From Escherichia coli (GTDB taxonomy: Bacteria > Pseudomonadota > Gammaproteobacteria > Enterobacterales > Enterobacteriaceae), in NCBI RefSeq assembly GCF_011045215.1, contig NZ_CP049201.1: a stretch of DNA of 64,000 nt; one strand, written 5' to 3'. Position numbers and translations under genes: made by a program. Every line of letters starts with the position of its first letter. The stretch's first letter is position 1. The notes below the pieces were generated by a model. It worked only from the letters and a program-made list of their open reading frames with translations. It ran no database searches and had not been told where the DNA came from. Shown in pieces: positions 21,716-63,904 of this stretch.

Positions 21716-24238
21716 ATGAGTCTGACAGATACACTTTCAAAAACTATCTCTGTTTCCCTGAATCGTTACCATTTAATTATTCCCTCCTGCCCGTCACCAC
21801 TGGATGTTGAGCATTTCAGCGGCAGGGAGGAGATGAGTCAGACCTATTATTACATCATCAATTTTACCAGTACTGACAACGACCTGGATGCCGGGCTGCT
21901 GCTGCGTAAATCAGCCACATTTACAATGGGTACGGGAGGGCTTAAGGAGCAGGTGAGCCAGAAAGTAGTACATGGTGTCATTACAGATTTTCGCCGTATA
22001 TCGGGCTCCGCCGACCAGGCAAAATACCAGGTGATACTGGAACCATTTATTAAACTACTGGACAGGCAGCATCGTTCTCACCGATTTTTCGTTAACAAAT
22101 CGGTGCCGGAGGTGGTGACAGAGGTTCTCCAGGAGCACGGTCTGAAAGGCTGGGAGTTTGAGTTCCGTCTCAAAAAAACGTATCCGAAGCGTGAACAGAT
22201 TAACCAGTATCAGGAAAGTGACCTGCAATTTATTCAGCGTTTGCTGGCTGAAGTGGGGATTTTTTATTTTTTCACCCTGCAACCGGACACGCAGACGGAA
22301 GTGGTGCATTTTGGTGACAGCCAGGCAGCGCTGACGTTTGATAAGACGCTGGCGATAAACAGTCCGTCCGGAATGAATGATAACAGAGCGGATTCAGTGT
22401 GGGGGCTGAATGTGACGCACAATGTGGCAGAGGCTAGTGTCACCACAAAGGCTTATAACCATCGTGAAGCACAATATCTGTTGCAGTCCGCCCCGGCAGA
22501 CATGACGCATGGTGATGGTGACGGAATTAACTATGGTGAGGTGTACCACTACCATTTCCGTCATCTGGAACGGGGGGATAAAATCGACCCGGTGCCGGAG
22601 ACGGCCAATTTTTATGCCCGCCTTGGTCATGAACGCTATCTGGCGGAGCAGGTACGGATAACCGGTAACAGTACAGACGCCACGCTGGCACCTGCTCAGG
22701 TTCTGACTATCACCGACAGTCTTCCGCCGACGTTGCCTGCGCTGCTGCGCAATCCGGTGTTGCTTACCTGTGTCGGTTTTTCTGCAAGTCGCAAGGATGC
22801 CCTGCAGGTTGTACTGAAGGGCGTTCCTTACAGTGAAGTTATCTGCTGGCGTCCTCCTTTACTGCCCCGTCCGAAAGTTACCGGTACCATGACGGCCCGT
22901 GTGACCAGTGCAAAAGAAGGGGATATCTACGCCTGGCAGGATGCATCAGGTATGTACCGGGTGAAATTTGATGCTGACCGTGATGATAAAAATCCAGGAC
23001 AGGAAAGTATGCCGGTACGTCTGGCCAAACCCTACAGTGGTGATGCTTATGGTTTTCATTTTCCGCTGATTCAGGGAACGGAAGTGGCCATTGCTTTTGA
23101 GGAAGGTGATCCGGATCGTCCCTATATTGCGCATGCCCTGCATGATTCACGTCATGTTGATCACGTTACCGATAAGAACGGTACGCGCAATGTTATCCGT
23201 ACGCCAGCAAATAACAAATTGCGAATGGAGGATAAGCGCGGCGAGGAGCATATCAAGCTCAGTACCGAGTATGGCGGTAAGACACAACTTAATCTTGGCC
23301 ATAACGTTGATGAGGAGCGGGTGGTTAGAGGAGAAGGTGCAGAGTTGCGCACTGATGATTGGGTGGCAATTCGGGGGGGGAAAGGGATTTTATTAAGTGC
23401 CGACGCTCAACCAAATGCTGATGGTGTAATGCTTGATATGCATAAAGCTATACAGCAGTTGGAACATGCTCTTGCTCTTGCAAAAAGCCTCGGCAAAGCA
23501 GCTGAGACAGCAAAAGCAACTTCGGCAGATTCAGATAGCCAGTCTATTTTGAAAAGTGCGCTGTCCGGGTTGCAAAAACCAGGGATATTAGCACATTCAC
23601 CTATGGGAATTGGTGTGGTAACTCCAGAAGCAGTACGGATTGCTTCTGGAAATCAGAGTGTAGGAATAGTTTCTGGTCGTAATACGGATATTACTGCAGC
23701 TCAGTCAGTAACTGTTGCGGCATCGAATTCTGTCAGCCTATTTGCGCAAAGTGCGGGGATGCAACTTTTTGCAGGGCAGGGCAAAGTGGATGTGCAGGCT
23801 CAGGGAGATGCGCTGAATCTCCAGGCACTAAAGGACGTCACAGTTACTAGTAATCGTGGTAGTGTAACGTTAAGCGCTAGTAAGGAGTTAACTCTTGTTT
23901 GTAATGGTGCTTACATCAAGATCAGTGGCGGAAATATCGAACTTGGATGTCCAGGTAATATTCTGCTTAAATCTGCGAATGTGCAAAAAATGAGAGCGGC
24001 AAACTTAAATCTATCTCCTCAGGTGTTGCCTAAAGGATTCAAGGGAGGATTTACAATAACTAATCAGGATACGGGGGAAGTGATGCCGTACATCCTTTAT
24101 AAGATAACTACCGCAGAAGGTGATGTTTATTCAGGTACAACAGATAAACTTGGCAATACCATGCCAATTTATACAGCGTCGCCATCATTAATGAAAATTG
24201 AGTTTCCTCTAAGCAGTGAACAAGGAGGGGCATTATGA
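21716..24238 (+). CDS. vgrG: T6SS spike protein VgrG (TssI) with C-terminal extension
   Basis: 840 aa, longer than a minimal VgrG; gp27/gp5-like N-terminal region then repeat-rich beta-prism region and an extra C-terminal tail of about 100 aa. Confidence 0.9.
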   Translation: MSLTDTLSKTISVSLNRYHLIIPSCPSPLDVEHFSGREEMSQTYYYIINFTSTDNDLDAGLLLRKSATFTMGTGGLKEQVSQKVVHGVITDFRRISGSADQAKYQVILEPFIKLLDRQHRSHRFFVNKSVPEVVTEVLQEHGLKGWEFEFRLKKTYPKREQINQYQESDLQFIQRLLAEVGIFYFFTLQPDTQTEVVHFGDSQAALTFDKTLAINSPSGMNDNRADSVWGLNVTHNVAEASVTTKAYNHREAQYLLQSAPADMTHGDGDGINYGEVYHYHFRHLERGDKIDPVPETANFYARLGHERYLAEQVRITGNSTDATLAPAQVLTITDSLPPTLPALLRNPVLLTCVGFSASRKDALQVVLKGVPYSEVICWRPPLLPRPKVTGTMTARVTSAKEGDIYAWQDASGMYRVKFDADRDDKNPGQESMPVRLAKPYSGDAYGFHFPLIQGTEVAIAFEEGDPDRPYIAHALHDSRHVDHVTDKNGTRNVIRTPANNKLRMEDKRGEEHIKLSTEYGGKTQLNLGHNVDEERVVRGEGAELRTDDWVAIRGGKGILLSADAQPNADGVMLDMHKAIQQLEHALALAKSLGKAAETAKATSADSDSQSILKSALSGLQKPGILAHSPMGIGVVTPEAVRIASGNQSVGIVSGRNTDITAAQSVTVAASNSVSLFAQSAGMQLFAGQGKVDVQAQGDALNLQALKDVTVTSNRGSVTLSASKELTLVCNGAYIKISGGNIELGCPGNILLKSANVQKMRAANLNLSPQVLPKGFKGGFTITNQDTGEVMPYILYKITTAEGDVYSGTTDKLGNTMPIYTASPSLMKIEFPLSSEQGGAL

Positions 24239-63277: not shown

Positions 63278-63904
63278 ATGATCCTATTCTTTTATCCCTA
63301 CATAATGCTTTGCTATAGCGCTGGATACGCTTTATTGCAAACACTGGATGGGATGGGTGTGATTAGTACCAACTTTGTAGGAATGAACGCACAGGGTGCT
63401 CTTTTGAGCAGTTACTGGTCTCCCAATAAAGTTGCTGTAGTCTTAGGAGGATGTTTTCTTGAGCTTGCCAGAAAAAAGGGACTCATCATTTGTTTTGTTC
63501 TTCTTATAACCCCTGGCCTGTTATCGTTCTGTCACCTTCTTCCTGCTATCCAGTGGTTGCCATTGACCTATGAAATAGGAGGTACAGGTGCAATGGGTAA
63601 CGCAGCTGGACTCGGAAGTCTTAGCTTCATAGGGCTATTGAGTGGTTGGGTTTTGGCAGTAATCATTAGTGATATTTTTGCTACAGGGGAGAAATTCAGA
63701 CAGTGGACAGATATTTTCCTAATACCAACAGCAGTTGGTAACGGTATTTTCTGGGTATCAGACAGAGAGGTGACTGTCGGTAAAACCGCACATGAGAAAA
63801 CAATTACGGATATTAATGATGCAGCCAAATACCTTCTTTTTCAGGTGAAAGGCTACAGCCGCATGTGTGACAATAACGGGCTTACCGATATGTCATCTTG
63901 TTAG
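63278..63904 (+). CDS. Multi-pass membrane protein of unknown function
   Basis: 208 aa with several hydrophobic helices; about 95 bp downstream of the helicase gene, same strand. Confidence 0.45.
   Translation: MILFFYPYIMLCYSAGYALLQTLDGMGVISTNFVGMNAQGALLSSYWSPNKVAVVLGGCFLELARKKGLIICFVLLITPGLLSFCHLLPAIQWLPLTYEIGGTGAMGNAAGLGSLSFIGLLSGWVLAVIISDIFATGEKFRQWTDIFLIPTAVGNGIFWVSDREVTVGKTAHEKTITDINDAAKYLLFQVKGYSRMCDNNGLTDMSSC

Follow-up and report, generated by a model that had tools for sequence, protein, structure and literature searches.

AT-rich, strain-variable cargo blocks on a Sci-1-type type VI secretion cluster of Escherichia coli

A stretch of 64,000 nucleotides (nt) from contig NZ_CP049201.1 of Escherichia coli (assembly GCF_011045215.1), hereafter the window, carries a type VI secretion system (T6SS) gene cluster of the Sci-1/T6SS-1 type together with several AT-rich segments, and the question that this locus raises is where these segments come from and what their composition does. 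A sequence-only reading had described a sharp mosaic, in which GC-rich T6SS structural genes are set against three AT-rich blocks, namely the lipase effector and immunity genes with the gap before the PAAR gene (block 1), a nuclease gene of the OLD family with its upstream region (block 2), and hsdS, a helicase gene and a membrane-protein gene at the end of a type I restriction-modification (R-M) locus (block 3). The blocks were proposed to be separately acquired cassettes and probable targets of H-NS-type silencing. The mosaic coincides with homology breakpoints, the blocks have alternative occupants in other strains, and cargo is shared between genera. Taken together, it is highly probable that the three blocks are strain-variable cargo slots on a conserved Sci-1/T6SS-1-type cluster in a chromosomal island.

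Compositional mosaic and homology breakpoints

Using an exact optimal partition of the whole window, we obtained 13 segments of different GC content, compared to one segment in each of 10 shuffled sequences that served as the control. This procedure replaced a greedy binary segmentation, which missed the interior troughs. The GC content of the whole window is 47.9%, and the partition recovered all three AT-rich blocks, along with two segments of T6SS core (Table 1). The same segmentation was applied to 37 kb of the K-12 core chromosome, which proved to be homogeneous at ~50% GC, with only two intergenic AT spots of ~350 bp each; the lowest GC content over 1 kb was 0.39 in this control and 0.31 in the window.

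The contrast extends to codon usage. We compared 14 T6SS core genes to the six genes claimed to be AT-rich, using 30 K-12 ribosomal-protein and elongation-factor genes as the reference set for the codon adaptation index (CAI). The core genes have a GC content of 0.504-0.581 (mean 0.539), a GC content in third codon positions (GC3) of 0.523-0.677 (mean 0.570) and a CAI of 0.306-0.565 (mean 0.390). The corresponding ranges for the AT-rich genes are 0.349-0.427 (mean 0.389), 0.268-0.397 (mean 0.325) and 0.251-0.303 (mean 0.278), so that the two groups are disjoint in all three measures (Mann-Whitney p=5.2e-5 each). Therefore, both the GC profile and the codon-adaptation profile separate core from cargo significantly. 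The GC content of first and second codon positions is depressed in the AT-rich genes as well, so that the amino-acid composition is shifted too, as expected from long-term AT pressure.

Several details of the described mosaic have to be amended. Block 1 is wider than had been claimed: it takes in the last ~360 nt of vgrG as well as PAAR and the 5' ~500 nt of the gene for a 382-aa protein, and block 2 ends ~340 nt before the OLD stop codon. The core can be called GC-rich relative to the cargo, but it exceeds the E. coli average of about 50.8% by only 1 to 7 points. All three listed AT-rich segments are real; however, the list was not exhaustive, as low GC content was also found at 1-2780 and 51101-53440 (copies of an IS4-family insertion sequence (IS), 40-43%), and at 5701-11840 (44%), 20701-23880 (47%) and 45321-49120 (45%).

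We compared the window by BLAST to four relatives, STEC313, 04-00955 (which, per its RefSeq annotation, carries the Tle1/Tli1 effector-immunity system), C5 and Eco_24-2013. None of the complete genomes in the collection matches the window over its full length, and the closest relative changes along it: STEC313 and C5 for the T6SS half, C5 for the OLD region, and Eco_24-2013 for the hsdS/helicase end. Compared to 04-00955, homology is lost at 23469 and is back at 27504, with flanks of 94-98% nucleotide identity. Compared to C5, the interval 22804-28245 is only 71-77% identical, versus 98.6% beyond it. STEC313 and 04-00955 both lack the OLD cassette, with breaks at 43552 (43551 in the second comparison) and 45742, and homology to C5 stops at 58792, 25 nt into hsdS. 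All three blocks are thus subject to presence/absence or replacement between conserved flanks in close relatives. The borders of composition and homology coincide: of ten GC change-points, seven have a homology breakpoint no more than 425 bp away (P=0.0016), and for the claimed blocks the distance is 16-421 bp at each of the five borders (P=0.0006).

Sequence identity changes in steps around the same places. Compared to STEC313, it is 96-98% along tssC-tssH, rises to 99-100% over about 20.5-29.5 kb, and then drops back; the 99-100% tract covers the effector cassette with its conserved flanks. Compared to C5, the sequence from OLD through 48.7 kb is 99-100% identical, and tagA, directly upstream, is 86-94% identical. 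The likely mechanism is replacement of the cargo via homologous recombination in the conserved flanking genes. Recombination in the flanks would make composition borders coincide with breakpoints and identity steps, and the steps are as expected if cassettes move among E. coli lineages in this way. The claim of separate acquisition is therefore well founded, given the coincidence of borders and breakpoints, the identity steps, and, as described below, the alternative occupants, a lipase module that crosses genera, and relatives of OLD and of the helicase pair on plasmids.

Two points weigh against this interpretation. The relatives used for breakpoint mapping were picked from similarity searches and are not an unbiased population sample. 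Moreover, composition is an imperfect marker of acquisition: an inserted defence block with PD-Lambda-1 and NERD-UvrD genes has 48% GC, and an inserted IS21-like element has 54% (54-56% for the IS21-like and IS66 elements). Low GC content is neither necessary nor sufficient for acquisition; it marked the three variable slots well, and the proposal that it is a mark of acquisition holds for these slots but not for the two insertions. In practical terms, composition change-points put the cassette borders within 16-421 bp, yet missed one inserted defence block.

Occupants of the slots and the origin of their low GC content

The annotation combines transfer from relatives with Pfam, PADLOC and NCBIfam scans. 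Profile searches upheld the gene identities proposed for the blocks (Lipase_3, PAAR, OLD, HsdS, and a superfamily 2 (SF2) helicase, whose partner has three to four predicted transmembrane segments).

In block 1, the lipase gene overlaps the stop codon of vgrG, and the GHSLG sequence of its product, a GXSXG motif, aligns with the nucleophile elbow of fungal class-3 lipases. The lipase has no BLASTP similarity to Tle1; its Lipase_3 domain suggests that it may be Tle2-like. No NCBIfam model matches the lipase, and NCBIfam offered no names for the immunity protein, the 382-aa protein, a 213-aa protein encoded upstream of vgrG or the membrane partner of the helicase. The lipoprotein encoded next to the lipase is, from its position, the putative immunity protein; it is 28% identical to the product of the same-position gene in C5 and is unrelated to that of the Tle1 system. 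The gap before PAAR contains no long open reading frame (ORF) and has no similarity to any slot protein, and thus shows no sign of a decayed gene. The region of PAAR and the 5' part of the 382-aa gene is conserved in the Tle1 strain and diverged in C5 (71% nucleotide identity). In block 1, the C-terminal domain of VgrG is part of what is exchanged, and this fits a C-terminus matched to its cargo, as has reportedly been found in work on VgrG-Tle1 of enteroaggregative E. coli (EAEC).

This lipase cassette is rare. The region 21700-29000 is 99.5-99.6% identical in 6 of 5,426 complete E. coli genomes, and many others match the flanks only. The effector slot holds the lipase/immunity pair of the window (34.7% GC), the pair of C5 (37% and 28% identical to it, 38.1% GC), or the non-homologous Tle1 with two Tli1 genes (42.0% GC). 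When one genome per species was scanned, the lipase was also found in Rosenbergiella australiborealis and Buttiauxella brennerae. In both, nucleotide identity to the window is 84% over the lipase gene, the immunity gene and the vgrG C-terminus, and the adjoining immunity protein has 78-80% amino-acid identity, whereas the neighbours are diverged (36-37% amino-acid identity for the adjacent 382-aa gene and 47% for tssM). The module has 32-40% GC in these two hosts, compared to 47-64% for their local T6SS flanks. In B. brennerae, the lipase is itself a mosaic, with 194 N-terminal aa that are 87% identical to the window lipase and a remainder that is 63% identical, and two immunity paralogues lie downstream of it, with 33% and 80% identity to the immunity protein of the window. 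This arrangement suggests that recombination took place within the effector gene and that an additional immunity gene was kept.

Block 2 sits between a tagA-like gene and remnants of ibrA/ibrB. At least five different occupants of this interval were found across E. coli: OLD; another ATP-dependent nuclease with a hypothetical protein; Zorya II; a 1016-aa 'anti-phage protein'; and a large AAA protein. They have 30.9-38.8% GC (43% at the start of the AAA protein gene), versus 54-55% for tagA. As judged from these occupants, the tagA-ibrA/ibrB/perC interval behaves as a defence hotspot. The intact OLD orthologue of C5 matches the PADLOC Old model at 2.9e-66, and relatives of OLD occur on large Klebsiella conjugative plasmids (68% amino-acid identity) and in a small Vibrio phage record (48%). 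The anchor gene tagA is one intact 454-aa ORF in the window and three pseudogene pieces, per RefSeq, in three relatives; its centre (42500-43000) is 86-88% identical to all three relatives compared, and the sequence on either side is 93-97% identical.

Downstream of hsdM, the slot of block 3 is occupied by hsdS (36-39% GC) followed either by a PIN protein gene (31%) or by the helicase pair (38-40%), and hsdR/hsdM have 50-53%. The first target-recognition domain of hsdS (58796-59179) is the sole difference from Eco_24-2013 in this comparison. The helicase gene is always followed by the gene of the same 421-aa partner. The pair also occurs on the IncF plasmid of C5 (97% identity), in K. pneumoniae beside hsdM-hsdS (96%), and on Vibrio, Acinetobacter and Rhizobium plasmids (45-53%); on the E. 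coli IncF plasmid, no type I R-M system is listed alongside. The helicase has only weak matches to PbeA and no close relative in the Protein Data Bank, and its partner has no match in Pfam, PADLOC or NCBIfam. The helicase and the membrane protein are candidates for an uncharacterised defence pair.

These occupants bear on the origin of the AT-richness. If the blocks were recent imports from low-GC bacteria, with a composition that has not yet drifted to that of E. coli, the very low GC3 (0.27-0.40) and CAI (0.25-0.30) next to host-like neighbours, the sharp block borders and the helicase relatives in low-GC Acinetobacter would all be explained. Such a donor signature is nevertheless improbable. 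The lipase module is just as AT-rich in Rosenbergiella and Buttiauxella, between flanks of 47-64% GC, and the scan for a low-GC donor of the lipase yielded the relatives in these two genera only. The helicase pair has 38-40% GC wherever it was measured (E. coli chromosome, IncF plasmid and Klebsiella), beside an hsdM of 51%. All the unrelated genes that occupy these slots are AT-rich as well, which points to a property of a class of genes rather than of a single donor. In all hosts that were examined, the low GC content accompanies the cassettes, and we suggest that it is a property of the pool of mobile cassettes and not the mark of a particular donor.

The opposite possibility, that the blocks are old residents that became AT-rich in place through relaxed selection and a GC-to-AT mutation bias, is very improbable, and we rejected it as the cause of the mosaic. 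It is consistent with four inactivating lesions in the defence genes and none in the T6SS genes (Table 1), a pattern that fits relaxed selection on cargo. Conversely, intact homologues elsewhere share the composition, close relatives with conserved flanks lack the blocks or have non-homologous genes in their place, some strains match the cassette regions at 99-100% identity, which makes these regions recent rather than long-decayed, and each lesion is a single event in a gene that is otherwise conserved.

The lesions themselves were called against intact relatives, and it should be noted that the two single-base indels, in OLD and PD-Lambda-1, may be sequencing errors. The longest OLD ORF, from 44001, lacks the Walker A motif. 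Given the premature stop in hsdR and the presence of hsdM and hsdS, restriction would be lost and modification kept, as the sequence stands. If real, the lesions fit relaxed selection on poorly expressed cargo; they are not evidence for H-NS. We also considered that the two CAG>TAG lesions might have a special meaning, for instance engineering or the use of a suppressor, and dismissed this as over-reading, since C>T at CAG is among the commonest routes to a stop codon.

Possible regulation of the AT-rich blocks

The second part of the sequence-only reading concerned silencing. We lean toward the prediction that the AT-rich blocks are bound by H-NS/StpA in vivo, with lower confidence for blocks 2 and 3. 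The blocks have 60-64% AT over 1.8-5.4 kb, and 200-bp windows with an AT content of 62% or more account for 62-63% of all such windows in blocks 1 and 2, compared to 0% in the core. H-NS prefers AT-rich DNA, and in Salmonella AT-rich genes were about 20 times likelier to be H-NS-repressed (PMC1550270). The T6SS of enterohaemorrhagic E. coli (EHEC) is strongly derepressed in an hns mutant (PMC5363993), and H-NS represses T6SSs in several other species (PMC10482370).

For block 1, a perfect RfaH ops element, GGCGGTAGCGTG, has to be taken into account. It is the sole exact match in the window, and its 12 nt are on the non-template strand of the untranslated leader between hcp and tssH. The 12-mer is kept at the same place in STEC313, in 04-00955 and in the ~74%-identical cluster of ATCC 25922, of the extraintestinal pathogenic E. 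coli (ExPEC) type, despite divergence of the leader around it. Its homologue at tssH of CFT073, an identical 12-mer located at -60, belongs to a set of eight bona fide RfaH sites; H-NS-StpA filaments occupy every one of these loci, and the RfaH signal at tssH appears in an hns stpA mutant (PMC9765446). In the window, the AT-rich effector block is 5.8 kb downstream of ops in the same orientation, which places block 1 as an obstacle that RfaH-modified RNA polymerase would have to pass en route to PAAR and tssM-tssE. The conserved ops upstream of the block makes an involvement of H-NS at block 1 more credible, and we predict that H-NS/StpA silencing there would be relieved by RfaH loaded at this element. 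A terminator-like hairpin with a T-run is found just after hcp (about 17935-17975), ahead of ops.

A number of observations weigh against silencing by H-NS. Some AT-rich genes are not bound by this protein (PMC1550270). The H-NS high-affinity motif TCGATAAATT, with at most one mismatch, has seven matches in the window versus 5.35 expected, which is not significant, and the 18 promoter-like sites in 20.7-28.95 kb compare to 18.3 in dinucleotide shuffles. For CFT073, H-NS at tssH is described as 'bound internally and upstream', with no gene-level detail (PMC9765446). The cargo of the related ATCC 25922 cluster has 47-50% GC, 5-10 points below its core. The H-NS motif, -10-like hexamers, promoter-like pairs, TpA steps and A-tracts are several-fold denser in the AT-rich blocks; these densities track AT content and so lend no support to H-NS beyond composition itself. 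Neither Kahramanoglou 2011 nor PMC4720273 gave a usable composition threshold for H-NS binding.

Acquired cassettes could also be controlled mainly by other means, through Fur/Dam-regulated internal promoters, read-through from the T6SS operon or promoters of their own. The closely related EAEC sci1 cluster is regulated by Fur and Dam, and its internal promoter P4532 drives basal tli1 expression (PMC13262931); in avian pathogenic E. coli (APEC), T6SS-1/hcp1 is reported to be Fur-regulated, and hcp2B to be the one regulated by H-NS (PMC6730261). Furthermore, the immunity protein and the R-M methylase must be expressed for self-protection. A simple scan for Fur boxes combined with GATC sites (Psci1/P4532-type) revealed no convincing site upstream of tssB, vgrG, PAAR or OLD, and no convincing architecture of this kind in the AT-rich intergenic tracts. 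Together with the H-NS repression of the EHEC T6SS and with the conserved ops, which implies passage through H-NS-type obstacles, this makes a main control other than H-NS rather unlikely, and in any case Fur/Dam and H-NS modes can coexist.

A further idea, which we regard as doubtful, is that AT-richness is a maintained, host-independent property of the cassettes that acts as a built-in regulatory gate. If this were true, a 4.4-kb H-NS/StpA-nucleating block would stand mid-operon between vgrG and tssM, and expression of the toxic cargo and of the downstream half (PAAR, tssM-tssE) would depend on RfaH at the tssH ops. Swapping cassettes of different AT content (occupants with 34-50% GC) would then retune T6SS silencing, defence hotspots could take up toxic nucleases cheaply, and silencing would explain the decay of several of them here.

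Gene map of the window and comparison with known systems

The full T6SS-1/Sci-1 core set (tssA-C, E-M, hcp, vgrG and PAAR) is present in the Sci-1 order (Table 1), and its ORFs are collinear with, and equal in length to, the annotated genes of the STEC313 cluster; PAAR and tagA were confirmed by Pfam. The part of vgrG at 21716-23469 has 50.1% GC. The T6SS genes are undisrupted apart from an accessory gene between tssA and tssF: a 568-bp deletion at 33893-34025, compared to STEC313 and 04-00955, removed most of this 693-nt 'type VI secretion protein' gene, of which just a fragment is left in C5. The defence block inserted downstream of tssE was identified by PADLOC matches to PD-Lambda-1 (5.8e-88) and, for the NERD+UvrD helicase, to the candidate system C3a187 (2.5e-141); it is absent from 04-00955, yet it is not AT-rich.

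On the left flank of the T6SS (5701-11632, 44% GC), there are yfdX, a truncated porin gene, a ProQ/FinO-family gene and an ECs1377-family gene. A microcin locus (mchF/mcmA) takes this place in STEC313, so the left T6SS junction is variable too. A 1943-nt inverted repeat with 100% identical arms (400-2342 and 50915-52857), made of the IS4-family element and the 5' end of istA of the IS21-like ISSso4, brackets the entire T6SS and OLD region, with 48.6 kb between the arms, and offers a substrate for inversion. An exact direct repeat of 145 nt (100-244 and 2364-2508) lies on either side of the left copy.

Table 1. Segments, genes and lesions of the window; the segments of optimal partition are given first
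Feature	Position	Strand	GC content	Remarks
AT-rich block 1	23881-28260		36.3%	Segmentation
AT-rich block 2	43521-45320		36.6%	Segmentation
AT-rich block 3	58641-64000		39.9%	Segmentation; right end open at window edge
T6SS core, first part	11841-20700		55.8%	Segmentation
T6SS core, second part	28261-43520		52.1%	Segmentation
IS elements	1-5700			IS4 family, IS21 fragment, IS110, IS66
Sci-1/T6SS-1-type cluster, whole	11633-37795	+
T6SS core genes tssB, tssC, tssK, tssL, tagL (OmpA family), hcp, tssH/clpV	11633..20785	+		RefSeq annotation of the 97.5%-identical STEC313 locus
RfaH ops element	18055-18066	+		Perfect match in hcp-tssH leader; 32 nt before the tssH start codon, starting 43 nt upstream of it
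Conserved 213-aa gene, AT-rich intergenic tract and conserved N-terminal two-thirds of vgrG	20772..23469	+	47%	Intergenic tract of 302 bp, 36% GC
Variable C-terminal part of vgrG	23470..24238	+	44%	Exchanged along with the effector
Class-3 lipase T6SS effector	24235..26145	+	36.3%	636 aa; GC3 26.8%; GHSLG nucleophile elbow; Pfam Lipase_3 7.7e-21
Putative cognate immunity lipoprotein	26129..26890	+	34.9%	253 aa; lipobox FFLLGC near N-terminus
Non-coding AT-rich gap before PAAR	26891..27493		about 31%	Promoter-like site on + strand, 27404-27432
PAAR gene and 5' ~500 nt of 382-aa membrane-protein gene	27494..28260	+	42%
T6SS core genes: rest of 382-aa gene, tssM, tssA, tssF, tssG, tssJ, tssE	28261..37795	+	51-56%
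Inserted defence block	37782..41797	+	48.3%	133-aa gene, PD-Lambda-1 (frameshifted), NERD+UvrD helicase; between tssE and tagA
tagA-like gene	42158..43522	+	53.8%	ImpA_N and VasL domains (Pfam); left anchor of defence slot
OLD cassette	43553..45741	+	38.7%	Breakpoints 43552 and 45742 versus STEC313
OLD nuclease gene, frameshifted	43847-45662	+		Pfam AAA_15 and OLD-like TOPRIM; PADLOC Old 1.7e-50
Right flank of defence slot	45742..48717	+	45%	ibrA/ibrB remnants, perC, 206-aa gene, helix-turn-helix gene
IS insertion versus C5	48718..52848	-	53-54% and 40%	IS21-like istA/istB (53-54%), IS4-family element (40%)
hsdR and hsdM	53707..58770	+	50-53%	Type I R-M, conserved part of locus; premature stop in hsdR; Pfam
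hsdS specificity subunit	58767..59894	+	39%
SF2 helicase	59901-63182	+	40%	1093 aa
Membrane-protein partner of helicase	~63335-64000	+		421 aa when intact; off window end
PD-Lambda-1 lesion	38860			-1 A
OLD lesion	43897			+1 A; frame shifted at codon 17, before Walker A motif
hsdR lesion	55615-55617			CAG>TAG at 55615
Helicase-partner lesion	63902-63904			CAG>TAG at 63902; also 45-nt deletion (about 63463)

The cassette phenomenon as such is already known, in the form of lower-GC effector modules, defence hotspots, variable hsdS genes and xenogeneic silencing, and the window is a new, well-resolved instance that does not overturn current understanding. Its value is that of a quantified E. coli case of a rule documented mostly in Vibrio: a conserved T6SS chassis with an effector slot and adjacent defence slots that are AT-rich, probably driven by recombination, and shared across genera. 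It also draws attention to the rare class-3 lipase/immunity pair, the tagA-ibrA hotspot and the helicase with its membrane protein, and the ops upstream of AT-rich cargo offers a testable link between cargo composition and T6SS regulation.

A close parallel is module exchange in V. cholerae. According to a review that summarises Unterweger 2014, Kirchberger 2017 and Thomas 2017, structural genes are conserved in that species, and the effector modules that follow vgrG are swapped and have 6-13 points lower GC content (PMC6730261). The same 2019 review stated that no such effector-module analysis existed for E. coli (PMC6730261). The window shares with V. cholerae the conserved core, the swapped lower-GC modules downstream of vgrG and the orphan or duplicated immunity genes, represented here by two tli1 genes in 04-00955 and two paralogues in Buttiauxella. 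It differs in that the contrast is about 16-20 points (36% versus 52-56%), and in that the unit includes the C-terminal domain of vgrG, and sometimes PAAR, and is common to three genera of Enterobacterales. The gene order tssBCKL-tagL-hcp-tssH-...-vgrG-effector-immunity-PAAR-tssM... is that of EAEC Sci-1, whereas the effector, a Lipase_3 protein, is unrelated to Tle1 of the VgrG-Tle1-Tli1 system, as is the immunity protein to its counterpart.

Similarly, the defence slots resemble defence islands and the enteric immigration control region (PMC12707154) in their conserved anchors, variable defence occupants, and variable hsdS and neighbours; however, neither slot is the classical yjiA-yjiN region, and for the slot downstream of hsdS the island sits at tRNA-Leu in another strain. 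OLD has the ABC-type ATPase and TOPRIM architecture of its family, which includes P2 Old and the class 1 stand-alone OLD nucleases, and Old is its top PADLOC match, but it is only 24% identical to P2 Old at the amino-acid level, is chromosomal, is frameshifted, and resides in a hotspot rather than a prophage. Finally, the multi-kb AT-rich acquired DNA and the exact ops in the tssH leader resemble the loci known for H-NS/StpA silencing and RfaH-ops antagonism (Lucchini 2006, PMC1550270; PMC9765446), while the CFT073-type RfaH/H-NS cluster is only ~74% identical and has cargo that is much less AT-rich.

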